DNA of 63,407 nucleotides, filler included, from Stramenopiles sp. TOSAG23-6 (lineage: Eukaryota), in the NCBI GenBank assembly GCA_900128565.1. It is 12 parts of 12 records of this genome, joined end to end, with 100 filler letters (N's around TTAATTAATTAA, not from the genome) between each part and the next. Parts side by side here need not be neighbours in the genome. Positions count along the whole stretch, not along the records: positions 43,001 to 49,009 come from LT636795.1; positions 49,110 to 55,109 come from LT636796.1; positions 55,210 to 61,196 come from LT636797.1; 9 more parts are not named here. One strand, given 5' to 3'. A program made the position numbers and the translations under genes. Below the pieces are notes generated by a model that saw only the letters and a list, made by a program, of their open reading frames with translations, did no database searches and was not told the origin of the DNA. This document shows, piece by piece, positions 30,830-63,407 of the stretch (position 1 is the stretch's first letter; the number at the start of each line of letters is the position of its first letter).

Positions 30830-31997
30830 TTCTCACTCCTGAACAAGACCAATTTGCGCCTGATTTGGTAAAAGCTCTTAGTCAAGCGAATCAACCAGTT
30901 CCGAAGAAATTAAATGAAATGAAAGAAAAATTTCTTCAAAAGGTAAAAGATGTATGTTTTATATGAATTTCTAATTTAATTTTTTTTTTTTTGGTTTCAT
31001 ACGAAATTTCGTACCTAACGAATTTTTTTTGAAATATTTTTTCACAATACATGGAGTAGCAAGAAAGCATGCCAGTGGATTTTCAGGTCAAAAAGGATTT
31101 CGTTTTGATGATGGTGAGGCAGAGGAAATGTATGTAACCCCTAACCCTAATCATTGTATTGAAACTTGAAATTTTAATTTAAATTTAAATTTTTTTTTTT
31201 GCTCAAAAACAAAAAAACAATGTATTAAAAAAATAATTTTTTGAAATATTTTCACAAAAATACATGGCTTATGCAAAAGAACTTGATCGATTACGTGTTG
31301 AAGTTAATGCAGGCGTTACTGATATTTCACAGCTACACGAAATGCAGAACGCAATCACACAATTAAAAACTGAAAAATTGAAAAAGAAACAGGCTCTAGA
31401 GAGTGGCACTAACCCTAACCCTAAGAACAACACTGAAGAAAACACAGGAGCGAATGATTTTGCAACCAATAGTAAACGAGCTACTTCAGCTGCAGAAAAG
31501 CTCGCGATGTCTCTTGGTATTATTGATACAGATCGACTCGCAGAAGAGAAAAAACAAAAAAAACAAAAAGTGAAAAATACAATTCAAAATTCGCAGGTAT
31601 GTTCCACAGAGGTGGATATTAATGATTATCCACAAAAAGCGAGGTATATAGTCACACACCGAGATACAATAGAACGAATAAGAGAGCAAACAAATACAAT
31701 AGTCGTCTGTCGTGGATCTTATTTTAATCCTGGTAAACAACCGAAAATGGGTGAGAGAAGATTACATATGTACGTTATTCTCCTATTTTTTTTTTTTAAT
31801 ATGAAATTTTCATATGAAATTTTGTACCTAACAAAAAAAAATATATATTTTTTTTTTCACAATACATGTTTATTCAAGGTGCTAATGAAATTAATGTAAA
31901 GAAAGCTCGTATGGAAGTAATGAGAGTTGTAGAAGAAATTACCATGAGTGTAGGATTTGATAAAAATGCCCTAAAAGGTAAATATTCTGTTTTATAA
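30830..31997 (+). CDS. DDX46: Spliceosomal DEAD-box helicase Prp5/DDX46, C-terminal exons 30830-30951, 31053-31129, 31266-31769, 31868-31997
   Basis: FLTPEQ..SGFSGQKGFRFD, EVDINDYPQKARY, RGSYF..GERRLHMFIQG..GKYSVL* match the DDX46 C-terminus. Confidence 0.92.
30952..31052 (+). other. GT-AT family intron
   Basis: GAT|gtatgt..cacaatacat|GGA in frame. Confidence 0.88.
31130..31265 (+). other. GT-AT intron with degenerate core and telomere-like repeat
   Basis: AT|gtatgtaacccctaaccctaa..aaaatacat|G in frame. Confidence 0.8.
31770..31867 (+). other. GT-AT family intron
   Basis: AT|gtacgt..cacaatacat|G restores the DDX46 terminal segment. Confidence 0.9.
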
Positions 31998-34913: not shown

Positions 34914-36015
34914 ATGGCAAGTTTTTATAATACTTTTTTTCGTAGTTGCTTTCAAAAGTGTCATGCATTTCAACACAAAAGTGCCACTCCAATACCATTT
35001 GGTACACGACCTAGAGTCACAATGTTCCATCAATATAAAGCAATGCGTACGTATAAGCATAGAGCATCTAGTCAGCTATACAGAAATCGTTTTGATACAC
35101 TAAATACTTTTCGCCCTTCCTCTTTCTCGTTGTCAACTCATTTTCCTTCGAGTAATACATTTCGTGTTTCATGTACGAATCAAATTATACGTCGTACACT
35201 TTCATCTTCTAGTAATAAACCTGCAATGAGTTTGAAAGAAAAGTATCAACTTNACAGTGGTGTCTACTGGGGAGCGGGCGTTTTATGCCTTAGTATTGCT
35301 TTTGCAGAATTTTCACCGGACAATTTAAAAACTAAAATGTTCATAAAAGCAACAAAACTGCTTCGTTTTTTTTCTCTTTCTAAGGATACAATTTCTGACA
35401 AACTACTCCTCGAAGATTTTTTCCAAAGGAATATTGAAGCTGCAAAAAATGTTATTTTAGCGTCTCCTGCGTTTTATGGTGTTTGGCATTTTGTTCATGG
35501 ATGTAACGTGTCAACTAGTATAGTTCGTTCTATGACTGGATCATTGAGAATCGTGTACGTTTTTCATTTTTTATTTTTTTTGTTTTTTTTTGGTACGAAA
35601 TTTCGTACCTAACGATTTATTTTTCATAAAAAAAAAAAAAAAAAAATTCACAATACATTCCCTTTATGTTTGTGTTCTATGGCGGATTTGCATTGATTGC
35701 TCCATTTGTGACATCATATATTATGACTACACGAAACAAAGACTATCATGCCGCAAGTGGAGCTGCAGGTGCTGTTATGATGATGAGTGGATTTTGTTTG
35801 GTAGAATCGATTGTAGATTTTTTTCATTTTCAATTTCTAATTTATTTTTTTTTTCATACGAAATTTTGTACCTAACGATTTTTTTACAATTTTTTTTTTT
35901 TTCACAATACATGTAGAGTTAAGAGGTTGTGGAGTCGCATTTAATCAAATGAATCCAGCAATGACTTTATTCATTTTTGTACCTGCACTCGTTGTTCGTT
36001 TATTTGCAGGTGTTT
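34914..36015 (+). CDS. Membrane protein with presequence-like N-terminus, weak rhomboid-like motif; introns 35555-35658 and 35813-35912, 3' partial
   Basis: Hydrophobic segments, AASGAAGAV; both GT-AT joins in frame. Confidence 0.45.
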
Positions 36016-36206
36016 GTATGTTTTATATGAATTTCTAATTTAATTTTCTTTTTTTTGGTTTTTTTTCGTAAAAAAATTTCGTACCTAACAAAATTTTTTA
36101 AATTTTTTTTTGAAATATTTTTTCACAATAGTTTTTTTTTTTCATACGAAATTTCGTACCTAACAAATTTTTTTAGATTTTTTTTTGAAATATTAATTCA
36201 CAATAT

Positions 36207-36788
36207 TTTACTGAGTGCAATATTAGGATCTATATCTGTTTTTATTGCAAAACTTGGAGCAACAATACAGAATTCTAGTACAATTCCTATTCTTCATAAA
36301 ATTCCACAAATTATCACAAACAAAGAATTTCTGTATGTTTTTTTTTCCTTTGAGGCTCTGAAAATCTTTGATTTTTTTTTCATAGTAAATTTTGTACCTA
36401 ACAATTTTTTTTTTATTTTTACTAAAAAAAAAAAAAAAAAAAATTTCAAATTTTTCACAATACATATGTTTTGTGAGTATACTTATTATTACTGCAATAC
36501 TTGCCATTCATTACTCAAATAAAGCACTTTCTCTTGGTAATGCTTTAGTGATTATACCAGTTCAGTATACACTTTCTATGGTAATGTACGTTGTCTAACC
36601 CTAACCCTAATTTCATTTTTTTTACTATGAAACATTTGTACCAAACAAAGAAACATCCAATTTTTTTTTAATTTTTTTTTAAATTTGTTTCATACGAAAT
36701 TTTGTACCTAACAATTTTTATACATTTTTTGAAATATTTCTTCACAAACTATAAAAATAATAATGGGTCTTATTTATTATCAAGACTA
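36207..36788 (+). CDS. NIPA-type Mg2+ transporter fragment; GT-AT introns 36333-36465 and 36586-36752
   Basis: ILGSISVFIAK, HYSNKAL..ALVIIPVQY, MGLIYYQD. Confidence 0.65.
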
Positions 36789-42900: not shown

Positions 42901-43059
42901 NNNNNNNNNNNNNNNNNNNNNNNNNNNNNNNNNNNNNNNNNNNNTTAATTAATTAANNNNNNNNNNNNNNNNNNNNNNNNNNNNNNNNNNNNNNNNNNNN
43001 GTTTTTTATAAAAATTTTGTACCTAACAAATTTCGAATTTAATTTTTTTTACAATGCAT

Positions 43060-43143
43060 GTAAGTCGATCCTTAGCTTCATTTCCAGATCATATTGAGTC
43101 GATTGAACTGCAAACTGCATTGAGTAAACTGTTTACACAATAA
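43060..43143 (+). CDS. Terminal exon of an unknown gene
   Basis: Follows family acceptor acaatgcat; open to TAA. Confidence 0.4.
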   Translation, partial: VSRSLASFPDHIESIELQTALSKLFTQ

Positions 43144-43503
43144 ATAAATAATACTTGATATATATATATATATAATTGTTTTAATTAACTTCTTACAAAA
43201 TGTAATGCTGATTTTTCTTTAGAAAACCCTAACCCTAGGAGTTTTTTTCTTTAGAACGGAAGAAAATACAGAAAATATAGCGGATATAAATTCTCTCTTG
43301 ATTCCGCCGGTAACGGTTAACCCAACATATCCTTAGTTAGGTACCATTGATACTATTTATACAGATACTCTATATTCTATAGCCTTGATCATGTAAAAAC
43401 ATTGTATTCGATTATACACGAAATATAACAACTCGACGAATCTGATTTGCATTTATATTTACATTTGGTACATAATTACGTACTCAAAAGTAGTATTGAA
43501 AAA

Positions 43504-45450
43504 ATGCCTATAACAAATGAAAAGGTCACTGATCTTGAAACAACTGGAACAAACCAAGAAAAACAGCACCAGACACGAAAACTATTTAAAGTTCCGCTCA
43601 TTAACAAAGTGGTGGATGTAGGTGGTGGTGCAAAACTTGGGTACTACTATACCACGATATTTCTTGGAAATCCACCTAGACGTTTTAGCGTAATATTAGA
43701 TACAGGTAGCTCCAAGACGGTGATTCCATGCGTAACGTGTACGGTTTGTTCAGGTCACGCTTTCAATCCTAACAAAAGTACAACTTCGAGCATAACAGAT
43801 GAAACCTTTAAGGATAATTATGAAGAGGGTTCTTCGTTGTATGGAAAGTTTATTACAGACCTCGCATGTATTGGAATAGCTACATCGTCGTGCGTTGGAA
43901 ATACCCTCCCTTTTATGTTTGGTTGTGCTGATTACATGTCTACAGCTTTTCAAAAACAAAAAGTTGATGGTATCATGGGACTAGGAAATGGAGAGTATAG
44001 CATTATAGAATCAATGAAGGTGCAACATCGAATTCAATCAGATACATTTAGTTTATGCTTCAACACAAATGGTGGTGTATTAACAGTAGGCGGTTATGAT
44101 GATACATTTCATTATAATAACAATTTTAGTAAAATAGTATGGACATCATTACTAACAGATTATTTAGGTAGACTAGGATCTAGATACACCGTTAATGTAG
44201 ACAATATTTCAATGAAAGCAACAGGAATGCAATCAAAACATCAACTTGATTCTAATCTTTTCAGTATAACTGCAATTTTAGATAGCGGTACATCAGATAG
44301 CTTTGTTCCTCGAGATATTTATATCTCATTTAGAAGAAACTTTGTTTTCCATTGTAGAGAGATGGCTGAGCACACAGAAAAACGATTAAACAATACTGAC
44401 CAATGTCTGAAAGAACCATGCGGATGTTCGGGGAAATATATAGATACTGATGGTGACAATATATGTCTTTACAAGCCAAACTCGGTACCATTAAATGAAT
44501 TTTTCAACTCTTTTCCAAATATTTACATTACGCTTAATGGAGGACGCTCTGTGCGTATGTTTTAGTTTTTTTTAAGTTTTGAATGTATTGGAGTTTTTCC
44601 CGAAACATGTTGTACCTAACAAAATGTACAAAAAACAGTATTTTTTCACAATGTATGAAGTCGCCATGGAGAACGTCCACGAAGCCAGGAGAAATCTTCT
44701 CTCTTTCGTATTGAAAATGACTTGTATTCCCTATGCATACCTCCATCACAATATTTCTTCAAAAGTTCTCATAATAATATTTGGTGCATTGGGATATTAC
44801 CTGATGATGCAAATAATGAATTCATACTAGGTGCAAATATAATGCAAAATTATGACGTCATTTTCAATCGAGAAGAGAGAAAAGTCGGATTTGTGAGATC
44901 TTATTGTACACAAAATACACAAAATACACAAAATACAAAAAATATAAATAGTTGTACTTTGCTTGAGATGACTTCTCAGGGTGATAAAGTTAATCAAAGT
45001 CCATCAATAATACAAGATGGCCATGTTAATTCTTCTCGAAGTAAGACAAATACTATGAATAACCCGAACCAAAAGGACATCTTTAACAAACAAAATGTAT
45101 ATGAAATTGCTACATTTAAAAAAAGAAATCCAGAGGGGTTTTATCAATCAATACTCGATGAAAGTAAACATAATATTTATGATGCAATCAAATATGGAAA
45201 ACGTGATCATTTTGAGTTATTTATATGCATGTGTATATTGTTTGGGATTATAATATGTATTGTTTTATATGGTTGTTATAAACAATGTTGTAAAATCATA
45301 CGATGTGGAAAGCAACAACATAACTATTCTAGAACATCAAATGTTGATATTGATGTAGTTCCTTTTGATATTGAATTGTCTAATTTGACTGTTGACAATG
45401 ATATTCAAAATGAAAATAAAATAGAAGAATTTGGACTAGATGATGGGTAA
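43504..45450 (+). CDS. A1 aspartic protease with C-terminal TM (plasmepsin V-like architecture); GT-AT intron 44555-44656; start uncertain
   Basis: ILDTGSS, ILDSGTS, DGIMGLG, ILGANIMQNYDVIF. Confidence 0.88.
44555..44656 (+). other. GT-AT family intron (register-defining)
   Basis: C|gtatgt..cacaatgtat|GA gives CGA; shifting by -1 or -2 creates in-frame TGA. Confidence 0.8.
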
Positions 45451-45824
45451 TATTTTAATAATGAAAATAAATGTTACAAATTTTTCCTACGAAAAACAAA
45501 AAAAAATGAACGACTTTTTACCAAATCTCAAGATAATAATTTATTTTAAAAAAAATAAAAGTCAAGTGAAATTTTCAAAAAAAATGAAATTGAAACAAAT
45601 GAAAGAGCAAAAAATATGATAATTTTTATATTTTGCTTTATTAACAACAGTTTTTTTTGTACGTTTTTTTCATTGTAAATTATAAAAATTAAAAAAAAAA
45701 ACCTAGAAAATAATCAAATCAATTTGCATTAATTTTTAAATTAAACTTCACTAGCAAAAAATCCTAGAAAATAATCAAATCAATCTGCATTAAAATTTAA
45801 ATTAAAAATTTAAATTAAACTTCA

Positions 45825-47916
45825 TTAGCTATTATCGCAACAATTGTTTTCAGGACAAGGCGTCTGATTTGGTGCACAGAATTGACCCGTCGCACAATGT
45901 ATTTGGCAATTATCTGGCGTTTGTGTTTTTCTTTTTTCGGCAAATGTTGCTGATAAATTATGAAAAAATATGTCACAAAAAAAAAATGTTAGGTATGAAA
46001 TTTCTAGAAAAAATATAATTTTGATACTCATATGATGAAAACGTACTATCTGGGTTAGAAGCACATGGTTGTTTTTGTGCCTCTGTACGAGATGTTTTAC
46101 CTTTAAATAACGAATGAAGATCGTCACAAAAAGTGTTCAAAGCAGAGCCAAAACAAACATTGTTGTTGTTATTAATAAAGGGTTTTACTAATTCTTCAAC
46201 TCCTTTTCCTCCATCACGTTCGTTTTGGAATTGTTGAAGATTGTCGGTAATTTTGAAAAAAAGGTTCGAACACTTGTTGAACTTACAATTTTGTGTGCTT
46301 GGTTTACAGTCACAAGTCACTTTATCTATGTCGTCTGGATAAAAACCACAGTCAATCTTTGCTGGATTGGCGCATCCAAAGTTGGAATCGTTTTTGTCAT
46401 GCCAATAACTGTTGTCTAACTTTGAACAGGGATTTTGTGAAAAATACATCTTCCATGTTTCTTGATTATCTGTGGTCAATTGTACTGCCATATTTAGATT
46501 TACACCATCAACAGCAGTGACGTCCGCTACCACATCCATTCCTCCTTCCACCATGATTGGGCTTGTCATAAAATTCAATGCTTTCAAGCCATTTATATCT
46601 GTATAATCGGAAAAGAGTTTATCGTTATTTCCCGTTATACCAAAAATTCGAGCAGCGTAAGTACCTGTTGTGGTCAAAAACACACGATTTCCTCCTGCAT
46701 TGACCGGAATTCTAACGACGAGGGTTTCACCTTTTGGTAAAAGATATTCATGAAATATATCGGATCCCATTGGATTGATTGCATGCTGTTTCCAATTAAA
46801 AACTTTGTTCTTCACGGTTTTAGATGGCGAAAGACCATCATCAATCTCCCACTTTTGATTTTCACTACCAGTTTGAAAGAAAACATGCAAATAATCACCA
46901 CAATAATTATTTACAATCTGTACCGTTTTCTCATTTTGTTTTTCCAGCTCCATAAACGCTCTATGATTTGGGTTATCAAGGTCACTAAAGACCAGCAACA
47001 TCTTGTACGGTGGTCTAAGATATGGAGAAGATCCTACATCGTTATAGTCATAACAATACGATGTGAAGTCAGCTTGTCCAGTAAAGACATCACTATTACC
47101 TACAATACCACATCCTCCCCCAGCATTACCTGATGTTACTGGTGCTGATCCACCACTTCCACCACCACCACCATTGCCACCTGTTGGTGCTGATGCTGGA
47201 CCTGATGGTGTTACTGGTGCTGATCCACCACTTCCACCACCACCACCATTGCCACCTGCTGGTGCTGATGATGGACCTGATGGTGTTACTGGTGCGGATC
47301 CACCACTTACACCACCACCACCTCCTGATCCACCACCTGCATCATCGCCACTACCACCACTTCCACCACCACCACCTCCTGCATCATCACCTGCATCATC
47401 GCCACTTCCACCACCACCACCCTCATCATCACTACCACCATCGCCACCAGCATCACCACTGGTATCATCACCACCGGTATCACCACCATTACTACCATCA
47501 TCACCAACAACTCCGCCATTCATTATTTCAGCCAAGTCGAGCTTAATCCTTTCTTTGAATTTACTTTCGTCTATGTCCGTTACAACCACCCAAGTAAATT
47601 TAACTGAACTAGCTGACGCTGTAATACCATCAACTCCGTTCACAACTTTGCCCCCTTCCTTTTCTACTGCAGCTACAATTTTTTTCCTTTCTTCCAAGTA
47701 GTCATTGTTTTGATCATATGTTCCATCTATCGTAAAACTCTCAGTGAAGGCAATACTTGAACTGTTTGAACGTACAAAGACCAGTGGAATTAAAATACCA
47801 AGAGATATTGCAACCACTAGAAAGACTACAAGTATATTTACTCTTGTCTTTGTCCAGAACACCGTCTTCTTATTTGTCTGTGAGTTCCCCCCCAGGAGTG
47901 GCGTTTGAGACGACAT
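45825..47916 (-). CDS. Type II membrane protein with Gly-rich linker and thaumatin-like domain; intron 45953-46046
   Basis: N-terminal TM, Gly/Ser repeats, VQIVNNYCG, DVTAVDGVNLNM, SYCYDYND. Confidence 0.55.
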
Positions 47917-48061
47917 TGGTATTTGCTTTTCTTTGCGTCGGGCGATGTCGTACGATAATAATATTAATGTTGGATTCAAAGTTAAGATATACGGTTTAAA
48001 AGTTTTCTTTTGGATACTGTACGTTTTTTTATTTTTGTAATTCTTTATTTTGGATGTTTTG

Positions 48062-48100
48062 TATTTCGTGTTTTGCTTTGTGAGCGCAAAACACGAAATA
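48062..48100. promoter_or_regulatory. 15-bp inverted repeat carrying CACGAAA in a divergent intergenic region
   Basis: TATTTCGTGTTTTGC-N9-GCAAAACACGAAATA. Confidence 0.55.
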
Positions 48101-48348
48101 TACCTGTGTGTTTGGCAGGTGATGTTTTACAAAAATCGTGTCAAAGTGAATGAATGGTTTATGACAGCAAAAGCATGAATAAAAAAATTATTGGCCAGCG
48201 TCTTTGGCTTGACCACTCTTTTTTTCTCTCTCTCTCTCTCTACGAGTCACAATATTTTGTTGTTTGATCATTTTTCAAGGATACAACTTGATATTTGGTA
48301 GTTAATTTGCATTCATTTATTGTTGTTGTATTATGTTAGAATAGGGCG

Positions 48349-49009
48349 ATGAATTTCTTCTTTAATTGTAGCGGACAATCAACGGCCACTACTTCAAATA
48401 CTCAAGACGCATCTCAAGAAAACGAAAATGTACCACCCAATGAAAATCGTGACGGCGTTTTACTGGTTGCTGCGCAAGAGTTAGCGATTGGTTCAATTTC
48501 TTTATCTGACTTTTTGCATTTGCACAGAAAACATAGTTTAATGTTGACAGATGGAATGGCACCGACGACATCGTATTCATTCACTTCTTTGGAATTACAC
48601 AGTGCGGCTGAAAAACTTGCAAAAAAGTCACTAAGTGTTGAAGAGTTTCTCAATCTCGTTAAACAGAAACAAAATAGTACATTTGAATCGAATATGTATA
48701 CACGTAATAGTGATATATCAAAATGTAATGGTACATCAAATACAAATACTACCAAAAAAGAAATGATTCAGACAAATGAAAACAATACCAACAATGAAAT
48801 AAATCATAAAAATCATAAAACTCATAAAAATCATAAAAATGAAAACAATACCAAAAAAACCAAAAATGAAATAAACCAGAAAAATAAATTAAATTCAGAG
48901 AATGAAATTGTTTCACTAACCCCTAACCCTAATGTTAATGAAAATGTTTCACCATCCAATGTTAATGACATTATCCTTGAAGTCTCAGCTATGAAATTTG
49001 CTAATGGTA
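48349..49009 (+). CDS. Hypothetical protein fragment
   Basis: Open frame to contig end; repeated AA..LA...S...F motif. Confidence 0.4.
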
Positions 49010-49109
49010 NNNNNNNNNNNNNNNNNNNNNNNNNNNNNNNNNNNNNNNNNNNNTTAATTAATTAANNNNNNNNNNNNNNNNNNNNNNNNNNNNNNNNNNN
49101 NNNNNNNNN

Positions 49110-49763
49110 CTCTTCAAATGGGTGCTCTAGTTTCAACTNTTCTGTTTCGACATGATCAGTAAAGAGTTTTTTCTTATCCTCCACTGACATTTTTTCCCAT
49201 TTCTCAGCTCTTTTTTTCTTGTTCAAGTATCTTTCAAATCCAGCAGCAAGTGCTTCATCACCAGGTACGTCAAGAGGTACATCACGAGCATTTATCATTC
49301 TTCTGAAAGCTGACAGCGACAGTTTGGACGTTTCTTCCTGGTTTGGGAGAAATTTCAAGACATGTAGCCAGGGTTTTGAAAGGTTCACACCTGAAGCTTT
49401 TCTAAAAATGTTGTCCAGAGCTAGCTTTGTCCAAGGAAATTTCCATGACTCAAGGCTTTTAGAAGCAATGTCTGTTACCATTGAATGATCAATCTTAAGT
49501 TCATCGGAATTTTTGGAATCTCCCAATAAGCCGCGTAAAAATGCCAAGCGCTTACGTGCCCTTAAAACAAGGACATCCCAGTTCTCGTCCTTAAATTGTT
49601 GCGCAAGGCTGTCCCATCTTGATTGAACCTGTTGTTCCACCCGAACAAGTTCCTCGGGCTCTGGTTCCAGGGGCTCTGGTTCCGGCATGCTGCTACGGAG
49701 GCTGTGCATTGCAGCAACTGATTCATGTAATGCAATCAAGCTTAATAGTGCTAACCACTTCAT
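49110..49763 (-). CDS. Secreted hypothetical protein, 3' partial
   Basis: Signal peptide MKWLALLSLIALHESVAA. Confidence 0.5.
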
Positions 49764-49887
49764 TATTCTTGAAATGTTTCGGAGTCCTTTTCTTTGAAGT
49801 TTCTATCGCCGTGAAGTTTACTAAAAAACTATAAAAAGAACTGACTGGTAGCAAAGTCGACGAGTATATTTATCTATTGCTTCCCAC

Positions 49888-51057
49888 ATGTCTTCGCTGA
49901 GTGAAAAAATGACAAATGACATCAGTCACTTATCATTGAAATCTCCTCAATCACTTCTAACGACAAGCCGTATTGAGACTTCAAATGTGTCAACTTCAAG
50001 TGTTTCAACATCAACCATTACTACATCTATACAAGAGCAGCGTAAGGCCAGGCGTATAGCAAAACGTAAAGCAAAACATGAGTTAAAGAAGACTATTTCT
50101 CCTACAAAAACGACTAAATTACGTATTTTAGCACTCCACGGAGGAATGCAAAATGCAGAGACTTTCAACAAACAAACAAAGAAACTTCAGAAGAAGTTGT
50201 GTAAAATAGCTACTTTTGACTTTATAGATGCTCCTTTTCTGACATTGAAGCCTGATTATGAAAAGCCTCGTTGTGTAAAGACAGGGCAGTATCAATATTC
50301 TACAGTACCACCATCCGATGAGAATATTCGTAGTTGGTGGGGTTGGAATTCAGAAAATCCGCAAGATTATCGATATGCCATTAATGGTCATGATCAAGAA
50401 GGATTAGTGTATGGTAATTTACAAACGTCTTTAGAATTTATTTGGACTCAGTGGACTAAAGAAGATAAAAAATACGATGGAATTCTTGGGTTTAGTCAAG
50501 GAGCTGTAGTTTCATCAATATTTTCTGATTGGGTTATACGTACAAAACCACAAAAATCAAAAAATATTCCACAATTTCTCATTCTAATCTCAGGATTTTT
50601 AAAACCTGTTCCAATAAATATACCCGAATATTGGATCGATAGAGATTCAATGTATAACAATATTGGGTACAATGGCAATGGTAATCAACTTATTACTGAC
50701 ATTAATGATTTTATTACAAAAAATAGTAAAAATAGTAAAAATAGTAAAAATGAGGCATTTATGATTCCTTCTCATCTAACTGATGTTTTCCAGCACTTTG
50801 AGCTAGACAATACGAAAGGATTGAATACTACAAAACAAAATATTAGTGCGATTAAAAGTTTACACATTTATGGTTTACATGATACGATTATGCCCAATTA
50901 TAGAACAATTTCATTAGCATCTAAATATACAAATGCTGTAGTGTTTGGTCATTGTTGTAAAAAAAAAGGTCACATTGTTCCACAAAATAGTGAAAGTATT
51001 CAGAAAATGAAAACATTTTTAGAATTGTTTTTAAAGGAAAATAATGTAAAAAAATAA
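49888..51057 (+). CDS. FSH1/OVCA2-family serine hydrolase
   Basis: ILALHGGMQN, FIDAP, DGILGFSQG, HIYG..D, GH. Confidence 0.85.
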   Translation: MSSLSEKMTNDISHLSLKSPQSLLTTSRIETSNVSTSSVSTSTITTSIQEQRKARRIAKRKAKHELKKTISPTKTTKLRILALHGGMQNAETFNKQTKKLQKKLCKIATFDFIDAPFLTLKPDYEKPRCVKTGQYQYSTVPPSDENIRSWWGWNSENPQDYRYAINGHDQEGLVYGNLQTSLEFIWTQWTKEDKKYDGILGFSQGAVVSSIFSDWVIRTKPQKSKNIPQFLILISGFLKPVPINIPEYWIDRDSMYNNIGYNGNGNQLITDINDFITKNSKNSKNSKNEAFMIPSHLTDVFQHFELDNTKGLNTTKQNISAIKSLHIYGLHDTIMPNYRTISLASKYTNAVVFGHCCKKKGHIVPQNSESIQKMKTFLELFLKENNVKK

Positions 51058-51365
51058 AAATCAAAAGAATTAATAGAAGAAATTGTGTCATTTTGCATTT
51101 TGCTATAAAAAGTGTATATTTCGTGTTTTAGGTAAGTATATTGAGTCACTCGAGTTATTACGCATACGAGATTGGTACAAAATTGACGTAGTAAAATTAT
51201 TTCGCATATTCCGCATATAAACACGCGCGCTCGAACGAGTAAAGCGCGTGAGTGCGCGTGAGTCTCTCTATTTACTGTTGGTCGAACTGTAAAAGCTACA
51301 CAACAAAATATACGCATGTACAAAGTGAAACAAAACACTTACATAATACATTGATAAAGAAGTAA

Positions 51366-54300
51366 ATGGAGAAAAGTAGTCATACGTTGTTGGGTTCAGT
51401 GACTGAGACACCATCGTATCACACTCTCAACGAAAGCGAACAAAACAAACAACACAGAAGTCAACAGGACGAAAGTTCTACTTCTCTGTCGTCGTTACAG
51501 TCGTCACACATAGATTCACTGTCTCCTAATGATATATTCCCATCATCCAACGTTTATAAAATTGAATCAGACAAAATTCATACTGTGTTTGATTCTACTA
51601 AATTTATTAACTTACAGGATACTTACCAAAAATCGAGAACAGAAACGTCGGCAGAGCGCCGCTTAAAAGCAGCTGCTGAAGAAAAAATTCTGCTCAAAGC
51701 GGCTAATGCAAAGTTAGCCAAAGCTCGTTTTTATGATGAGGAGTTTTTGATTCGTACAAAATTATTACAATTATATGTGAGTTTTCATCATCATTTTTCA
51801 AGTTTTTTTTTCGTACGAAATTTTGTACCTNACNAANTTNAANTTTTTTTTTACAATTTTTTCACAATACATGGAACACTACTACACAAAAAGTTGAATA
51901 TTGTACGAAATTATCGTAACAAATTTAATGGTGTAGTTGACTCTATTCGTCAAAAATCTCAAAATATTGTTTTGAATAAAACGAATAATAGTATTAGTAG
52001 TACAACTACTAGCGTACAACAAATGAATACAACTTATTCTATAGTAAAAGATATATTGGATGATATACTTTTACATGTCTTATACCCTAACCCTAATCCT
52101 ACTAATGTAAGCCCCAACCCTAATTACCCTGACCCTAACCCTACTAGTGAAAGCCCTAACCCTACTAGTACAAAAACAAAAAAAATACCGAATACAAATG
52201 TACCAAATTCTGTACCTAATCAAACGATTCATGATACATTACAAAAATGTAAGGAAAGTATTGACACGAAATGTGAAACAATTCAAAACAAGATTGAAAT
52301 ACAAAAAGTAAAACATATACAATTTCAACAACAATTAGCCACGTGGCAAAAAGAAATTGGACATTCAAGAGTTCCTGATGAATTAGATTGTCCTTCTGGT
52401 GGTACTTTTAAAATTTTTTTTTCATCAAGAATTTCAAAATATTTTTTTCGTACGAAAATTTGTACCTAACAAATTCTGAATTTTTTTTTTCCAGAAATAT
52501 TTTTTGACATCACATGTGTGCTCGATGATCCCGGTACCGTGCTTGTACGTAAAGTAAAAACAAAAACAGATGACAAACATAATAAATCTGGAAATGTTTT
52601 ATTGGAATATCAAGTTGGTCAGATTATGGTATCAAGTGATGCTCCAAATTTTAATGGAAGTGAGTTCAAAAAAACTTTGCTTGAGGAGCAACAAAAATTT
52701 CAATTATTAAAACAAAAACAAGAAGAAAAAAAAGAAGAAAAAAAAAGAAACAATGAAAAACGAAGAGAACAACAAAAACAACAAAAACAACAAAAACAAC
52801 AAAAACGACTACAACAATACCAACAATACCAACAACAAAAATACCAACAACAACAAAACCAACAACAACAAAACCAACAGAAATATAAAGCTGGATTTCA
52901 ACAGTTGAATACAAAAAATACAAAAAATACAAAAAATACAAAACATACAAAACATACAAAAAATACAAATATTTCTCATTTGATGAATGCGTATACTCTT
53001 CAGCTTAAACGTGAAATGTTACCACTAAAACATCGAAATGCTTTATTACGTGATAGAATTCTTCGTGAAGGATCAAAAATTATTCAGCAAAATTTACAAT
53101 ATAATCCATTATCTACTTTATCATTACCACAATACCAACAACAACAATACCTACAAAAACAATACCAACAACAATATCTACCATCTCAACAACAATTTCA
53201 AAAATACCAACAACAACAACAATTTCAAAAATACCAACAACAACAACAATTTCAACAATACCAACAACAACAACAATTTCAACAATACCAACAACAACAA
53301 CAACAACAATACCAACAACAACAGCAACAATCTAAATTTTTGAATACAGTAAATAATCCATTATTACAAAGTCAATCAATACCAAATAATCCATTATTAC
53401 AAAATCAATCAATACCAAATAATCCATTATTACAAAGTCAATCAATACCAAATAATCCATTATTACAAAGTCAATCAATACCAAATGATCCATTATTACA
53501 AAGTCAATCAATACCTCCATTAGTACAAACTTTCCTACCTAATTTTGTACCGTCAGAGAATACTCAAAGAATATCCTGTAATTCAAATTATTCAAATTCC
53601 AATTCAAATATGAATAATTTGAATCATTCAAATATGAATAATTCAAATTATAAATTGAATAATTCAAATTATTCGAATTTGAATAATTTGAATAAAATGA
53701 GTAGCCAAGAAGAAGCAAAATGGATGAGATTGTGGAAACTACAAAATTCTGTACCAAATTTTGTACCTAATTTATTTAGGCAAACAAACCTCAATCATTC
53801 AGATTTTTATTCTACATCGAATACAACAAATTATTCTATACAAAATTTTGTACCTAATCAAAATAATCAAAATAATCAAAATGTTGCATTACATCAAAAT
53901 TTTGTATCAACTAAAATGTCTCAATTAAATACAGAAAAAACGGAAAAAAACAACCTACAATCTCAACAAGAAGAAATGATAACTTCAACATATGTACAAA
54001 GTTTTGTACCTATTCAAAAAAATCAAAAAAATCAAAATAATCAAAAAAATCAAAAAAATCAAAATAATCAAAAAAATCAAAATAATCAAACCTTTGAAAA
54101 GGATGTAAAAAATTTGAAACGTAAACATGACAACATTCAAAATGTAAATTTGACAAAAGAGCAACAAGAAGTATACGACAATTTACCAAAAAAAAGAAAA
54201 ATTTGTTTTGCGAGAAATGTTTTAAAAGCAAAAGAATCAAATTCAGTTGATATTCAATTAAAACATCAACAATATCATTTACTACAACATCAACAAGATT

Positions 54301-54741
54301 TAAAATCAGCTGAAATGTTTTGTAAAATGGTTTTCGATAAAAAATCACCCACAAAACTTGAAATATTGAACCCTAACCCTAACCCTACCCTAATAAAAAT
54401 GAAATGTAATGTGAATAACAAAATAAGTGAAACGAAAAAAAAAGATGATGTGAAAATATGCGTTTACGTGGGATGTGAAAAAAAAAGTCAAGGTCGGACT
54501 CCCTTTTGTGTTTTACATGGCGGGGTTCGTTACACTAGAAACATTTTTTTATACATTTTTTTATACATTTTTTTTTTTACATTTTTTCAAAATTTCAATT
54601 TTTTTTTTTTTGCTGTATAAAAAATCTATACCCAACACAAAATATTTTTATACTATATTGTAGACAATACATGGTAAACGGTGTATTATTGAAGGATGTA
54701 CCAAATCAGCTCAGGGTAAAACAAGAAAATGTATTGCACAT
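51366..54741 (+). CDS. Gln/Asn-rich protein with C-terminal WRKY19-like C-x4-C..C..HGGG zinc fingers; introns 51777-51872, 52402-52515, 54525-54672; 3' partial
   Basis: CVYVGCEKKSQGRTPFCVLHGG|GKRCIIEGCTKSAQGKTRKCIAH. Confidence 0.7.
53353..53515 (+). repeat. 33-bp coding tandem repeat x5 (NNPLLQSQSIP), next to poly-Q tracts
   Basis: Direct inspection. Confidence 0.85.
54525..54672 (+). other. GT-AT intron (register-defining)
   Basis: GGG|gttcgt..gacaatacat|GGT restores HGGGKRC; the AT-AC register would give HGDGKRC. Confidence 0.85.
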
Positions 54742-55260
54742 GCATGTTTTATCTTTTTTTACAAAAAATCGAATTTATTTTTTCGTACGAAATTTTGTAC
54801 CTAACAAATTTTTTAGAATTTTTTTTTGAAATATTTTTCCAAAATACATAACAATAGGGCAAGGAACGAATGCAGAATTCGAATGCGTTCCAGAATGCAC
54901 TCAAAAAAGTGACTGCGATTTTGTTGGTTGTTCGACGTTTCCTGGGGAGAATGTGACAAATTATGATTGTGTAGAACAGAATGGGCAACAAGTATGCCGT
55001 AATGTATGTTGTATTTTTTTTTTTTTTTGTAATTTTTTTTTTTTTTTTTTATTTTTTTTTTTTTTTAAGAAAAAATAATACCAAAAAAAAACTTTAAAAA
55101 AAAAAAAAANNNNNNNNNNNNNNNNNNNNNNNNNNNNNNNNNNNNNNNNNNNNTTAATTAATTAANNNNNNNNNNNNNNNNNNNNNNNNNNNNNNNNNNN
55201 NNNNNNNNNTCGTACCTAACAAAAACAAAATCAAAAAAAAAATATTTTTTCACAATATAT

Positions 55261-57236
55261 GTACTACTTGGAATAATTATGTAAATGAGTTTATCAGAAA
55301 ACGCGAAGCAAATAGAAAATCATTAAAAGTAAATAGAAGGGGAAAGCAAAAAAATACCCTGAAAAAAGTTCTAGATTCGATCATTTCGAAAACAAATGCA
55401 TTATGGGCTTGTGACACACCCCCGACAGAGTGGGTACTAGACTCCAGGCAGTGGGATGCTATTGGTGCAAAACTTTCTAGACAAGGAAATCATTGTAAGG
55501 AACGGTGGTTTGAAATTATGAAAACTGGTTTGCAAGCTGCCATGGATGTTGTTTCGGGTGATATTAATGATAATAATGAAATGTCTAACTTAGCTATGAA
55601 GCTTTGGTTTGATGCGTGTGAAAGTTCACCTCCTAAATTTCCTACTAAAGCTTCTACTGGGAGAGAAAGAGCTGCCAACAATAGAGTCTTAATGCACTTT
55701 ATGGATGCAAAATCTGATATACAATCTGATGCGACTAATACAACTATTTTCATTGGAACACCTTCTGATGTAAGCTTACCACCATTATCAAAGCAACAAG
55801 TGATGACATCATTCATGCAACTTTGGTTTTCTAATCGAATAATACAGTCGCCTTTACCCAGGAAGCAATCAAAATCTAGTAAAACTGCGCATGCGAATAA
55901 ACGTGGATACATACTAAGTGATGGACTACAAAAATCTTTAGGTATAGTATATTCTATAGATTCGCTGAAATTTGCTAATAAATTTTCTTCGTTNTATTCN
56001 GTTGGTTCGAAACGAAAATATTGGCCGAAAGATGGTATAGTGAATCAAAGTGGATATATTACTGCAATGTTACCTATGCTTATCAAAGGCGATGCTAGCT
56101 TATTTATAGATGTCGCCACTCTCAATAAGGTTGATATTGATGCTGATGGTCATAATGATGAACTTATAGCGGAGAAAATGCTACTTAAATCATCTGATGT
56201 GGATACTGTAAGATCTGCTGATATTCCAAAAAGTTCAATATGGTTGGACACAACAGGTGAACGTTCTGGTTGGGGTGATTCATCCCTAGAGTCTTCCTTT
56301 TTTATTCCGGATGCTGATGNTGANGATGACGATGCAATTGTATTGAAATCAATGAGTGAAAATTTGAAAAGACAAATAACATCAAGTGGTCAGAACGGAA
56401 TTGATCTTCTTACATTGTTAGAAAAAAATCCAAATATGAGTAAGAAAAAAGTAAAAGCTGCCCTAAAAGACTTATTATTCAAAAAGACAATTGTTTGTGT
56501 TTCTGTGTATTCGTCTTTTAAATTTGTTGCTATGCGCAATTCCGACATTTGGGGAAGGTATTTTTCAATCAAATCTGATAGTAATAATAATCATAATAAT
56601 ATTAATAAACCCCGATCTGAATCAATTGAAATATTAGGTTCAAAATCTGCTGAAACTTTATTGAGTGAAAGAGAAACGGCAGCAAAAAATCAAGGACTTT
56701 TGGTAGAGATTCAAAGTCCATCACAGAATATAGTGAAAAGAAATTTAGAATCAAATGAAGTTCTTGAAAGTTCAGCATCTACTGGGTTATCTTCCGAGTC
56801 AAGCAATTCTTTATTTGCATCACAGGCTGAATCTAAACAGTGGTTTCAGTATAGCTGTTGGATTTCCCCCAAGGGTAATTGCAATGTATCTATTTTGGAG
56901 AAAGTGCGACAAAATATTTTATCAAAGTTGATTGAATTTCCTGGATTGAATGTAAAGCAGTTATCAAATAAGATATTTCCTGATATATGGGGTGTGTCTG
57001 ATATTTTTTGTGTAGTCTCACAACTAGAGAAGCACGGTTTGGTGAAGAGTTTTCGTGTAAAAACTGAGTTACCTCATATGACTCTTTTCGAGAATGTTGC
57101 AGGTGATGATTCCAATGTCAAATATCANTTATGTTACTTCGCCGATATAGAAGCTCTATCGAAATTACATGCAATTCGTACAAATCACTTGACAATGGTA
57201 GGAATGGATGATATATTTCGTTTTTATTTTTTATAA
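55261..57236 (+). CDS. C-terminal exon of a large protein with Myb-like and winged-helix-like segments (possibly TFIIIC subunit 1-like)
   Basis: WDAIGAKLSRQGNHCKERW; ILSKLIEFPGLNVKQL. Confidence 0.4.
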
Positions 57237-57299
57237 AAAAATACAGTTTGTTGTTGAGGAATAATTCATATTTTTATGTCAAAAATATTCCAATCTCAA

Positions 57300-58714
57300 T
57301 CAATCGATCAATATGCTACTCGAACTTGTACCTCGAAGAAATTCAGAACTTTCAACATTTGCTTTACTCGACGTGATGGTGACGTCTGCACACGAAGACC
57401 ACACCTGTGAAGATTCTTCACAATCCCAACGCCAACCAAGCACATATTTTCCAGGTTCCAAGTGAGCAGGAATATGTACTTTGTCCATCATCTCGACTTC
57501 ATCATTCCAATCGCCAGAACATTTACAAATTCCCTGAGTNCCGTTATGTGGATGATAGTGACTATTTTTACATTCTTCACTTTCGTCACAAACAGGATCG
57601 AAACTTGCTCCATATGTCGACCACTCATTGACATTTCTTGGAATGGGCATTTTTCGCCACATCGAGCCCTCAATATAATTTGTAGGATATGATAATTATA
57701 CAAAAATAAATATCCTCTNATTGTGTGAGTAGAGAACGAAAGTGTTATCTAAAAAAACATATTTAAAATAAATACAAAATACGGAACTGTACCAGTTTTG
57801 ANTTGCCATCCTCGTTCTACAGGATCAAAATAAAGTTGTTTACCGCCTTTCCCTCCCCATCGAAGGGAAGCTTTCCCAGTAAAATCCAAAGGTGTTTTTT
57901 GGAAACACTCTTCATTAAGTTCATTGCCAACTTTACAAAGTCGATAAGAATAACCACCACCGTGCCAAGCTTTCAGGGTCCATCCGACTTCGACATCACT
58001 CCCAGCTTGCCATACTGTTTCTGTCTCTAGAGGAGGTAATTGAGAACCCACATCTCCCACTTTTGCATATTTGGTTTCAAAATAATCAGCCCCAGCTGAA
58101 CCCTCGCCCTGGCCTTTCAATCGTCCACCTGCTGCACCGCAACTGTCAACGACTGGAGAAATTCCTGGATATCGCCAAGGCATGAAGAACCAAAAATCAT
58201 CCTCTGCTCCACACTCAGCGTTTGTGTTTAATGTTCGAAGTCGCTTGTCACAGATAGTTGCTTCCCGTTTAGGATACACCACTGTTGTAGGCCGAGCCTT
58301 CTGCCGATCAAATTTTTTCATCCAAGCAGGATCAGGTACAATACCTTCGCCGGTCCAGCTTGGTGGAACTTTATTTGGTCCTGTATATAAAAATTTTTCA
58401 TTACAACAAGGAATTTTTTGACCGGTGTTGCCATCACATTTTTCACAACCAATATCACAACCATTCGAAAACCAAAAACAAGATTGCCCAAGACTTCCAT
58501 CAATGTGCCGAGGATCTGTTGATTTNGCAGAAGGACTAGCGCACCAATTGGGGGTGTCGAATGGGATTGGATTAGGAATTTTTGAATTCCAAGGAAAGAG
58601 TGTTCCATCAATCGCATTCCGTGGTTTTGGTTGACTTAAGGAGCCGTGAGCACGTACCGTTAGAAATATTGGTAGCGTGAAAGATATAGTAAAACAGAAT
58701 GTCTTCCAAGACAT
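57300..58714 (-). CDS. Secreted lytic polysaccharide monooxygenase-like protein; GT-AT intron 57673-57782
   Basis: His directly after the signal peptide (VRA/HGSL..PRN), HGGGYSYRLC, PGKYVLGWRWDCE..QVWSSCADV; join restores GTVP|EGSMW. Confidence 0.75.
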
Positions 58715-59041
58715 TTTTTTAATGGTGATTTGTAGTGCGATGTTTTAACGAATAGCGGCAGTAGCTACCGGTAGATATAATGATACCTGATTTCAAAAGT
58801 AAGGGTATCTGATCTATCTTCTCCGCATTTGAAGTTTGAACGTGTTTTTTGCGGATGCTCCTCTATAGCCGTGTAGTTTCTCAGGACGTTTCTCGGCCGT
58901 TAATTACTAACTAGGGTTAGGGCGATGATAGTGACTGGCGCAGTCAGAAATTTCAAGAAATACAGTGTTGCCTCTCGTACATGAATATTGTGTTCTAATT
59001 TAATCATTTTATATTCTTTACAATCTACACTTTAGAATACA

Positions 59042-60131
59042 ATGCATGCTATTGCTCTATTTATTTTATTGGCAAATACTATTCCAGTATTTTTTGCTAT
59101 CCCGGTATTTGGAGACAATCGTGCATATATGCTTGGTCTCATGGCCAAGAAGAACAAGGGTGTTGCGGATGTCTCTTTCGAAGACTATGAAAAGTTCATT
59201 CTTGACCAACCCAGGCCGTATAACATTGTTGTACTTTTCTCATCAAAAGTAAATTGCTATTATTGTCCAGAGATGGCTGCTCAATTTTCTACTTTGGCTC
59301 AGAATTATTGGTCACAAAACCCAACACGAGATGATTTACACTTTGTGCAATTAACGTACAAATATGGCAAAAAACAAAAGAAAAAAAGAAATGATAATAA
59401 ACCTTTTGATGATTTCAAACTAAAATCGGTACCTCAATTAATGTATCTTGGTAGAGCAAAGGATAAGGATGATGTATTTAATGTACCAAAAGGAAATGTT
59501 TTCCCTCATCTGGAAGGAACTGCTGAACAAATGGCGACTTGGTTAAAACGGCGAGCAAAGATTGAAATTACAATTAAACGGTCTAATATGCTTGGTATAT
59601 TTATACTAACCACTATTCTTTGTCTAGTTGCATTCTTTGCAAAAAAAGCTCTTTCCCATTTGGATTCAATTTTACGAATAATTCGTCACAAAAAAATATG
59701 GCTATGGGGTTCACTAGCGGTGTATATGGCGTCGATTTCTGGTATTATATTTGATTTAATTCGAAACCCCCCTCCTTTTTATTGTACATCCAAAGGTTGT
59801 ATGTTTATTCATCCACAATCTCAACAACAATTTATAGGTGAAGGTTTGCTTATTGGCTCTTTATATATGGGTATGGCATATTGTGCAATTTTACTAAATA
59901 AGAGCGTGAAATATGTATGTTTTACTTTTTTTAAATTCGAATTTTTTTTCGTACGAAATTTTGTACCTAACGTTTTTTTTGAAATATTTTTCTACAATAC
60001 ATGGCCCTAATATGGATGATCACAGTTATACAATTATGACTTGTGCAGGTGGCTTTATTTTTGCATTTTCTATTATGTTGACTCTGTACAGAAGTAAGAA
60101 TCGGTGGTACCCTTTCCGATTACTATTTTGA
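59042..60131 (+). CDS. OST3: Oligosaccharyltransferase OST3/OST6 (MAGT1/TUSC3-like) subunit; GT-AT intron 59915-60002
   Basis: PRPYNIVVLF, CYYC thioredoxin-like motif, IRNPP, QQFIGE, YRSKNRWYPF. Confidence 0.88.
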
Positions 60132-62402: not shown

Positions 62403-63407
62403 AATTGAACAAGTGTCGAAAGAGAGTTTAGATGAATCATTTTATAAAAAACGTGCAATGAAAAGGTGGATTCTATTATTTATAGTAGCGACTGGAACTG
62501 GTGCTTCTAGTGCTCTGATAACGATGGGGATTGATGTTTTGCGAAATATAAAGTTTGGAAACTGGACAAATGAACTTTTGCAGCAAGAATTGCGAGGTGA
62601 TACAAAAGAACTTACGCCTTCCGTATTTATTAAATTTAGTGCTTTTAATATCGTTTGTGCATTAATTGCAGTTTTGTTTGTAGTTTGGGCACCCGCTTCC
62701 GCTGGATCTGGTGTACCTGAAATTAAAGCTCTTCTAAATGGTGTAAAAGTCCCGAAAGCTGTACGCTTGCGTACGTTTTATTTTTTTTCAATGTTTTATC
62801 TAAAAAATATTTTGTACGAAATTTCATACGTAACAAATTTTACAAAAAAAAAATATGTTTTCACAGTATATGTACGTTAATTGCAAAAATGCTCGGCGTA
62901 ATTTTTTCCGTTTCTGGAGGATTACCTGTAGGTAAAGAAGGTCCTATGATCCATGCTGGTGCGGTCCTTGGTGCAGGAATTTCACAAGGCAAAACTGTTG
63001 CTCTTGGTTGTGATACTTCTTTTTCAATACTACGCGATTTTAGAAATGATAAAGAGAAAAGAGATTTTATAGCATGTGGAACCGCAGCTGGTGTTGCAGC
63101 TGCTTTTAATGCACCAATAGGAGGAATGTACGTTTTTTCATCAAAAAATATTTTTTTTTTTCATGGAAAGTTTTGTACCTAACAATTTTTTTTAGTAAAA
63201 AAACAAAAATATTTTTTCACAATATATGTTATTTGCCCTCGAAGAAGGTTCCAGTTGGTGGCATCCTAGCATGAATTGGCGATCTATTTTTTGTGCTATG
63301 ACAAGCTCTTTTACTTGTGTACAAATTTTGAAAGCAGTAAGTTTAGATAAAAATTCATTGATTAGTAGAAATCCAACTGATAATGTTGGTGGTGGTGATG
63401 GTTTTGG
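62403..63407 (+). CDS. CLC chloride channel/antiporter (CLC-7-like), internal fragment; GT-AT introns 62771-62871 and 63128-63227
   Basis: [31 protein letters not shown]. Confidence 0.93.

Follow-up and report, generated by a model that had tools for sequence, protein, structure and literature searches.

The dinucleotide AG at intron ends ranks among the most constant signals in eukaryotic genes, and to our knowledge no lineage has abandoned it wholesale besides Fritillaria and the heterogeneous cases found in euglenids and Amoebophrya. The non-conventional introns of euglenids have no conserved border dinucleotides, depend on structure and possess ends able to pair. Introner elements are reportedly present in Micromonas and Aureococcus. 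Here we describe a family of introns of approximately 100 nt which begin with GT and end with AT, encountered in a 63,407-nt stretch of twelve joined contigs from Stramenopiles sp. TOSAG23-6 (assembly GCA_900128565.1), referred to as the window in the following. Judged from the sequence, these elements are, with a probability of roughly 0.7, major U2-type spliceosomal introns and mostly copies of various ages of one ~100-nt introner with GT...AT ends.

The closest precedent is provided by the 3'-AT introns of Fritillaria. According to passages of the published account (PMC13326754), AT terminates 34% of the introns in F. borealis and 44% of those in F. pellucida. The last three intron bases are described there as YAY, a triplet often present also just before the 5' splice site, and the non-AG ends are read by the major spliceosome with divergent U2AF1/U2AF2 paralogues. 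The same passages give the donors as mostly AG (AG/AC, AG/AT), distributed over many classes, with 5% GT/AG (PMC13326754). The family in the window resembles these introns in carrying YAT at 31/33 detected 3' ends and NAT before the donor at 20/33 detected 5' ends. Unlike in Fritillaria, GT or GC opens 30/33 copies, the termini are nearly uniform and one sequence family dominates. Fritillaria is a chordate, whereas the present host is taken to be a unicellular marine organism.

Published introner families are reported with canonical splice sites (PMC9860276, PMC12130899), and the methods section of one survey names only AG and AC as 3' sites, families with unfamiliar sites being dropped unless supported by RNA (PMC12130899). 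Compared with the introners portrayed in these passages, the window family shares near-identical introns in sense orientation, unrelated host genes, a high density, a few inverted bases at the ends and possibly a duplicated target (PMC9860276, PMC12130899). It differs in its AT end and in inverted ends of only 4-6 nt, and no transposon superfamily matching its 2-bp AT repeat could be named. For Amoebophrya, passages of the respective study mention inverted repeats of 8-20 nt and direct repeats of 3-5 nt, no dinucleotide signature, and a GC content of 54-58% for nuclear-encoded genes (PMC7789003). Likenesses to this system, as far as it is portrayed there, are a marine protist as host, repeated introns, direct repeats at the borders, inverted ends and termini other than GT-AG (PMC7789003), while the uniform GT..AT, the pairing of at most 6 bp and the GC content of ~33% set the window family apart. 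A full-text search of the literature yielded no GT-AT intron family in a protist.

Results

Register of excision at individual junctions

A preliminary description had located three introns in the window, each with GT at its start and AT at its end, and a reading of the sequence at each place found them as described. Their borders are gtgc/GTATGTTT..CACAATGTAT/gaag at 44555-44656 (+), cggg/GTTCGTTA..GACAATACAT/ggta at 54525-54672 (+) and ttcc/GTATTTTG..AAATTATAT/tgag at 57673-57782 (-). Since the window consists of twelve joined contigs, these test introns sit in three different contigs. The first is a diverged family member that has kept the GTACCTAAC motif and the end CACAATGTAT; the second and third have kept the family ends only. 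In a register test the excised segment was shifted by 0, -1 or -2 bases and the resulting junction was translated. At 44555-44656 register 0 gave GGRSVRSRHGE, whereas -1 and -2 led to an in-frame stop after GGRSV. At 54525-54672 HGGGKRC appeared in register 0 and HGDGKRC in register -2; register -1, which the preliminary description had passed over, also gave HGGGKRC. The third junction encoded P in register 0, I in -2 and L in -1. Also correct was the caveat of a competing GAG downstream of 44656: an AG at 44670-44671 provides an acceptor 15 nt past 44656 that is in frame.

Protein homology provided an independent measure of the junctions. The gene holding the third test intron (exons 58744-57783 and 57672-57300, minus strand) encodes an LPMO-like protein for which the database yielded 396 relatives with identities of up to 67%; most of these are ~405-420 residues long and located on contigs of ~1.3-1.4 kb. 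The joined product was aligned with 60 of these 396 relatives (P0040-P0099). Removal of 57673-57782 gave GTVP/EGSMW without a gap, and the junction column held P in 44, a gap in 14 and V in 2 of the homologues. Registers -1 and -2 were rejected at this intron because L and I were absent from all 60; register +1 would still encode P. For the CLC chloride-channel gene, 93 of the best 150 representatives were longer than 300 residues and carried the GKEGP motif, and the first 60 of these were aligned. Removal of 62771-62871 yielded VRLRTLIAK, again gapless against the homologues, with K in 40, R in 13, S in 3, V, W and N in one each and one gap at the junction column. Register 0 encodes R here, while -1 and -2 encode C, a residue found in 0/60. 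Removal of the second intron of this gene, 63128-63227, restored APIGG-M-LFALEE without a gap against APIGGVLFSLEE-type homologues, and use of the AT located two bases earlier in the box (CAATAT/AT) would break the motif. The junction in the OST3 gene was gapless as well: in the Pfam profile exon 1 ends at ~256 and exon 2 starts at ~257.

At the level of the predicted proteins, the reading frames and the gapless homology at these four junctions thus show the length that is excised, and cuts 1 or 2 nt further upstream are excluded in the two copies where homology discriminates. The GT-AT register that the preliminary description had favoured over AT-AC is supported by the junction codons, by the constancy of the end bases and additionally by this homology. 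The aspartic-protease homologues reached at most 31% identity, and the junction of the first test intron falls in a lineage-specific loop, so that an AT end at 44656 is not told apart from an AG end at 44671.

Reading frames on both sides of the copies

Open frames on both sides of the introns were compared for 24 hand-curated complete copies, all of which (24/24) are flanked by open frames on the same strand and hence lie in sense orientation. GT..AT removal joined the longest frames in phase in 19/24 copies (P = 5e-6 against a chance of 1/3), and hand reading found 21/24 in phase. The three extra fits, at 35555, 54525 and 45953, use the second-longest downstream frame, while the copy at 54742-54849 fits by longest frames, yet is out of phase with the actual HGGGKRC frame. 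Four introns found later (52402-52515, 10927-11064, 19137-19195 and 31130-31265) were also in phase. Frame alone does not separate registers 0, -1 and -2, because the same length is removed in each.

Several copies contain AGs between the branch-like motif and the 3' end, and their use would generate stops or broken motifs. At 44555-44656 an internal CAG ~20 nt past the branch motif would lead to a stop, and at 54525-54672 a TAG acceptor 9 nt upstream of the end would insert TIH and thereby break HGGGKRC. As read from the predicted products, these internal AGs are passed over.

Composition of the intron ends

For the repeat family, 33 ends were detected on the 5' side and 33 on the 3' side, and their bases were tallied. 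Directly before the intron stood AT in 20 cases, TT in 4, AC and CT in 2 each and GT, TG, TA, TC and AA in one each; the test introns add GC, GG and CC to this list. YAT preceded the donor in 11/33. The intron itself opened with GT in 28, GC in 2 and AT in one case, the remaining rows, with CA and TT, being mis-detections inside elements. GTAYG formed the first five bases in 27/33, and the variants were GCATG, GCACG, GTGAG, GTAGG, GTACT, GTACA and a single ATACG. At the 3' side the last two bases were AT in 31 cases and TT in 2, with no AG among the 33. Both TT rows are internal pieces of a tandem copy, at 36133 and 36208, and the AT rows at 52239 and 29363 are also mis-detections, so that AT stood at 29/29 true ends; as the copies are related by descent, this constancy is not a set of independent trials. 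All 31 rows ending in AT had CAT or TAT as last three bases, and the two bases ahead of the final AT were AC in 25, AT in 5 and AG, GC and TT in one each. The first exon base after the intron was G in 17/33, as at ordinary acceptors.

The flanking pattern AT/GTA..TAC AT had been called frequent in the preliminary description, together with the statement that the dinucleotide before the donor varies while GT/GC and the final AT hardly do. Both points agree with the tallies, and for copies flanked by AT the mRNA is identical whichever register is applied. Only register 0 yields near-constant termini at both ends together with a textbook GTAYGT donor at the cut. If both ATs began as a duplication, the exonic AT has decayed and the intronic one has been kept, as is expected of a splice signal.

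Anatomy and distribution of the family

A repeat search combined with motif scans returned 49 core matches and ~44 loci of one family of ~100-nt introns in 62 kb, corresponding to ~0.7 copies per kb in the window. The family follows the pattern (AT)/GTAYGTTTTA … CGTACGAAATTTYGTACCTAAC … TTTTYCACAATACAT/(G). In an alignment of 19 complete window copies and one outside copy, three conserved blocks were separated by variable T- or A-rich filler: a start block (at)GTA.GTTTTa, a middle block TTTTc.tacgAAATTTtGTACCTAAC, also written AAATTTtGTACCTAAC, in which a short palindrome runs into a TACTAAC-like motif, and an end block tTTTTtCAcAATAcAT. The palindrome (GTACGAAA/TTTYGTAC) leads into the branch-site-like TACCTAAC, followed by a T-rich tract. 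The TACCTAAC motif was conserved in family copies, with 31-46 nt from the putative branch A to the 3' end. The introns close with a fixed 10-nt 3' box, CA(C/A)AATAYAT, whose last base is the proposed 3' cut. The terminal bases are inverted over 4-6 nt (ATGTAT../..ATACAT), and AT is present at both sides in 20/33.

The host genes of the copies are unrelated and encode, among others, an aspartic protease, a CLC channel, OST3, and SPRY, KH and HLH proteins. Because 15/24 contig ends fall inside a family element, the assembly appears to break at family copies. Among metagenome contigs scanned for the 22-nt core, a single record matched, MDTB01012742.1; its copy is complete (ac AT/GTATGTTTTAG…CACAATACAT/gg) and lies within an unrelated gene. 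The window copies are 74-83% identical to this outside copy over ~70-120 nt. Since MDTB01012742.1 carries a full copy, the family is not peculiar to the window assembly. An autonomous element for the family was not seen in the window.

The copies and the spacers between the contigs are listed in Table 1.

Table 1 Family introns, diverged members and contig spacers in the window. A slash marks the intron border, exon bases are in lower case and borders are given in the direction of the gene
Feature	Position	Strand	Borders	Host gene or remark
Test intron 1	44555-44656	+	gc/GTATGTTTTA..GTACCTAAC..CACAATGTAT/g	Aspartic-protease gene
Test intron 2	54525-54672	+	gg/GTTCGTTA..GACAATACAT/g	Cys-rich repeat gene, ..CVLHGG/GKRCIIEGC..
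Test intron 3	57673-57782	-	cc/GTATTTTG..CCTACAAATTATAT/t	LPMO-like secreted protein gene
Family intron	62771-62871	+	gc/GTACGTTT..CACAGTATAT/g	CLC chloride-channel gene; register-discriminating
Family intron	63128-63227	+	at/GTACGTTT..CACAATATAT/g	CLC gene, second intron; register ambiguous, excised length verified
Family intron	59915-60002	+	at/GTATGTTT..CTACAATACAT/g	OST3/OST6 gene
Family intron	45953-46046	-	ta/GTACGTTT..CATACCTAAC..CATAATTTAT/c	Near 3' end of large secreted-protein gene; in phase with Cys-rich C-terminal frame of 41 codons
Family intron	51777-51872	+	at/GTGAGTTT..CACAATACAT/g	Single Ns inside
Family intron	52402-52515	+	tg/GTACTTTT..GTACCTAAC..GACATCACAT/g	Phase by hand, ..DCPSGG/VLDDPG..
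Family copy, GC donor	54742-54849	+	at/GCATGTTT..CCAAAATACAT/a	Exception to GT..AT
Family copy, 3' part	55210-55260	+	..TCGTACCTAAC..CACAATATAT/g	At contig start
Family intron	21385-21476	+	at/GTACGTTT..CACAATACAT/g	In phase, 752 and 681 open codons either side
Family intron	23506-23592	+	at/GTACGTTT..CACGATACAT/t	
Family intron	30952-31052	+	at/GTATGTTT..CACAATACAT/g	
Diverged intron	31130-31265	+	at/GTATGTAACCCCTAACCCTAATC..CACAAAAATACAT/g	
Family intron	31770-31867	+	at/GTACGTTA..CACAATACAT/g	
Family intron	35555-35658	+	gt/GTACGTTT..CACAATACAT/t	In phase with second-longest downstream frame, 71 codons
Family intron	36333-36465	+	ct/GTATGTTT..CACAATACAT/a	
Intron, inverted core	16653-16806	+	ac/GTACGTTT..TTCACAATACAT/g	
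Diverged intron	10927-11064	+	at/GTACGTTG..CCACAATATAT/cag	AG 3 nt on also in frame
Truncated copy, 59 nt	19137-19195	+	at/GTATGTTT..GTACCGAAT/t	Before SPRY domain; AG at 19204 leads to stop
Family intron	13753-13843	-	at/GTATGTTT..CCAAAATACAT/c	
Family copy, first base A	13485-13576	-	tc/ATACGTTT..CACAATACAT/a	Start also written ATACGTTTTA
Family intron, core tandemly duplicated inside	13261-13427	-	at/GTATGTTT..CTACAATACAT/g	
Family intron	7449-7536	-	at/GTACGTTT..CACAATACAT/g	In phase, 803 and 343 open codons either side
Long copy, 9-nt tandem repeat	6354-6543	-	gt/GTATGTTT..GTCAAAATACAT/t	
Family copy	3731-3822	-	at/GTATGTTT..CCAAAATACAT/ag	Exception to GT..AT
Family intron	3430-3529	-	at/GTACGTAA..TTACAATATAT/g	
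Family intron	2959-3065	-	at/GTATGTTT..CCAAAATACAT/a	
Spacers	6064, 12220, 18371, 24520, 30655, 36789, 42901, 49010, 55110, 61197, 62303		N44-TTAATTAATTAA-N44	

Variation among the copies was also recorded. In the alignment, differences between copies lay mostly at CG positions and changed CG to TG or CA, including the donor change from GTACGT to GTATGT, a pattern which looks like the decay of (methylated) CpG. The core and branch module is duplicated in tandem within the copy, or two such modules adjoin, at 13261-13427 (-), 36016-36211 (+) and 36586-36760 (+); such doubled-module copies suggest insertion of an element into an element or replication slippage. Core-like ..AAATTTTGTACCTAAT.. motifs occur at 52199-52220, 53750-53771, 53837-53858 and 53993-54014 (+). 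These lie in frame, are translated as NFVPN or SFVPI and belong to the Q/N-rich open frame 52470-54524. Exonised pieces or footprints of elements are one possible origin, a chance likeness in a low-complexity region another. No element-derived peptides, sought as a trace of the family in relatives, were detected in the 309 proteins searched. A supposed minus-strand copy at ~27880-27990 was discarded as a weak chance match in an intergenic stretch. Broad motif scans for additional introns, canonical GT-AG ones included, gave too much noise for a count. At 27898-27928 (+), past a gene end in intergenic DNA, the window contains a perfect 15-bp inverted repeat (AAGTGGGGGACTTAA / TTAAGTCCCCCACTT). 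Short telomere-like (CCCTAA)2 runs were found at 12863-12837 (-), 31130-31152 (+) and 43225-43241 (+); they stand directly past the donor in two introns (GTATGTTTAACCCTAACCCTAA, GTATGTAACCCCTAACCCTAA) and occur in non-coding DNA, too.

Window, assembly and gene content

The twelve contigs are chained by eleven N44-TTAATTAATTAA-N44 spacers, which have stops in all six frames. Contigs 1-10 measure ~6.1 kb each, with lengths falling in order, and the final two ~1 kb. Because the window is a chain of contigs, genes facing each other over a spacer are not genomic neighbours. The DNA is AT-rich, with a GC content of ~28-41% per 2-kb step and ~33% overall. Domain matches identified eukaryotic genes for an aspartic protease, an FSH1 hydrolase, OST3/OST6, a CLC channel and a SPRY protein, and further matches were obtained for YEATS, HLH, KH, Rpp40 and NIF phosphatase. 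The aspartic-protease gene comprises the exons 43429-44554 and 44657-45450, with PF00026 on both. An Rfam scan of the window gave no match. Searches of the protein database for transcripts of the same species returned none for the FSH1 gene (best 36% identity) or the aspartic protease (best 31%). Sequencing runs that share words with the contig 43001-49009 were two small DNA runs, several seawater or marine metagenomes and two seawater metatranscriptomes; the shares of sampled words in the latter, 0.13 and 0.06, are too small to count as evidence.

The LPMO-like gene at 57300-58744 (-) encodes a protein in which His is the first residue past the signal peptide (..VRA/HGSLSQPKPRN). Its sole Pfam match was a weak, below-threshold hit to AA9, and PF03067 was found on 3/120 of the relatives listed. 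Many of the 396 relatives originate from marine metatranscriptome-like contigs. By its sequence, the secreted protein probably represents an unclassified LPMO-like family. Long tandem repeats of 12 nt and 9 nt are present within open frames at 2510-2782 (-/+) and 52690-53366 (+), where they form N/Q/K-rich low-complexity coding sequence.

Discussion

The elements in the window combine an ordinary donor with an unusual end. Their 5' ends agree with the GTRNGT-like consensus of U2-type donors that pairs with U1 and U6, and the terminal AG is missing from their 3' ends. We infer from reading frames and homology that removal takes place at the RNA level and is spliceosomal. The spliceosome would excise the element at a donor /GTAYGT, rarely GC, and YAT/G would replace YAG/G at the other end. 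The TACCTAAC motif would serve as branch site, with the 3' cut following ~31-46 nt past the branch A. Because some copies end in TATAT, the site is not merely the first YAT after the T-tract, and the 10-nt 3' box seems to be read as a unit. This could be accomplished by a divergent U2AF-like factor as in Fritillaria, or alternatively AUACAU-3' could pair with AU/GUAU at the donor. Insertion at AT/G, sense orientation and frame-restoring excision fit an introner. Copies may have spread into AT/G sites either by duplicating 2 bp of AT or because AT/G served as a proto-splice site for reverse splicing, and GT..AT removal would then restore the original coding sequence exactly.

Several observations weigh against this interpretation. 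Register +1 often gives the same or a synonymous mRNA as register 0, and in-frame AGs stand near the ends of 44555-44656 and 10927-11064. A strict YTRAY had no match in 3 of the 10 introns inspected, namely 57673-57782, 54525-54672 and the truncated 19137-19195. The assembly is of low grade, with single Ns and 6-kb contigs. A simple GT..AT excision fails for two copies, 3731-3822 and 54742-54849. At 3731-3822 it creates a junctional TAG and misses the phase of the 113-codon downstream frame, which would be matched with the AG lying 2 nt past the end or with a GT 5 nt ahead of the donor. At 54742-54849 the HGGGKRC frame continues for 20 codons and then meets a stop; to reach the long downstream frame, the removed segment would have to be 2 nt shorter or 1 nt longer. 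The C-terminus may be real here, the cut may be another one, or the assembly may be in error. Taken together, the two misfits could reflect alternative sites, real stop codons or assembly errors. A third phase miss, 6354-6543, is ambiguous in phase. Finally, 13485-13576 (-) begins with AT and is in phase with both exons by hand reading; from its sequence it would be an AT..AT intron, if spliced.

The ends of the family also invite other explanations. The AT-flanked majority might be U2-type AT-AC introns, cut before ATGTAY.. and after ..AATAC, with the other copies decayed, differently cut or poorly spliced. Indeed most copies can formally be written ATGTA..TAC, given AT before GT in 20/33 and AC before the final AT in 25/33, and the same mRNA results for AT-flanked copies under either reading. 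A at +1 and C at -1 is moreover a known workable pair of termini (PMC1557818). We nevertheless consider AT-AC splicing improbable. The -2 register which it implies was rejected by homology at 57673 and 62771, the two copies where homology discriminates, and hits a stop at 44555-44656; the perfect GTAYGT at +3 to +8 would be a coincidence, and the 5' AT is lost in 13/33 detected copies, the 3' AT never at a true end. The ACCTAAC of the family resembles the U12 box TCCTTAAC, but it lies 31-46 nt from the end instead of 10-26, and no copy has the U12-type donor /ATATCCTT (no /ATATCC at any copy). About as improbable is a removal outside the spliceosome, by a structure-guided or endonuclease-and-ligase RNA pathway, in which the terminal inverted repeat would join up the ends as has been proposed for euglenid non-conventional introns and Amoebophrya introners, or by DNA excision like that of transposon-derived eliminated sequences. 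Young copies would allow 5'-AUGUAU to pair with AUACAU-3', which closed the predicted fold in 5/7 whole copies folded; such pairing would stagger the two cuts by 2 nt, and a TG..CA reading of the ends is transposon-like. The 2-nt direct repeat with short inverted ends also resembles the layout in Amoebophrya as given in passages of PMC7789003. The borders there are described as variable (PMC7789003), whereas those in the window are uniform. The ends share with euglenid introns that they are non-canonical and pairable, and they differ in that the donor is canonical, a branch-like motif is present, the termini are constant and the fold is not significant. For the seven whole copies the fold energies were no better than those of shuffles (z from -1.4 to +1.1), and RNA structure was therefore dismissed as determinant of the cut. 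No more than 6 bp are paired, and the old copies (44555, 57673) retain GT and AT although their pairing has gone. Conservation of GTAYGT and TACCTAAC further argues against this reading, as does the presence of the elements in the DNA assembly and in a metagenome contig.

Canonical GT-AG splicing, with nearby AGs as the real acceptors, AT ends as a by-product of the element sequence and small indels in the proteins, appears very improbable. It draws on in-frame AGs near the AT end at 44670-71 and 11066-67 and 2 nt past 3731, the last of these being the sole reading that keeps that gene in frame with a consensus donor. Most copies, for example 21385-21476, have no frame-keeping AG in reach, all four homology-checked junctions are gapless with the AT end, and the AGs between branch motif and end would, if used, produce stops or broken motifs. 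Least credible of all is that the family consists of amplification or assembly chimeras, or of never-removed insertions in pseudogenes. The fragmentary assembly with its many Ns, contigs broken inside the element and small source runs would be in line with artefacts. Against this, long in-phase frames flank the copies, the conserved host genes match full-length homologues at up to 67% identity, a further copy comes from an independent metagenome contig, and up to 0.46 of the words sampled from one contig recur in other seawater runs. GT...AT introns removed by the major spliceosome thus remain the preferred reading.

A wider claim is tentative, and we give it somewhat less than even odds: the whole spliceosome of this organism may have exchanged AG for AT at the 3' site (YAT/G), with AT/G instead of AG/G as proto-splice site and GT-AT as the normal intron class. 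If this is true, one ~100-nt intron could colonise AT/G sites genome-wide by reverse splicing or by 2-bp duplication. A uniform non-AG rule would also be a first for a unicellular lineage, and it would serve as a natural experiment for studying how the second catalytic step reads the final base of an intron.

A protist with an ordinary donor and a branch-like motif but an AT end would isolate the question of the 3' end. It would allow the changed contact to be sought, be it in U2AF1-like proteins or in the pairing of G(+1) with the last base in the second step. The non-canonical end would furthermore be tied to an actively spreading family, which bears on whether the family inserts as DNA, duplicating 2 bp, or as RNA through reverse splicing. 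Where AG or AC ends are assumed, as set out in the methods passages of PMC12130899, gene finders and introner surveys would break nearly every gene in such a genome and miss the family. Because gene finders of this type break the genes, the predicted proteomes of this lineage from single-cell and metagenome assemblies are likely fragmented.

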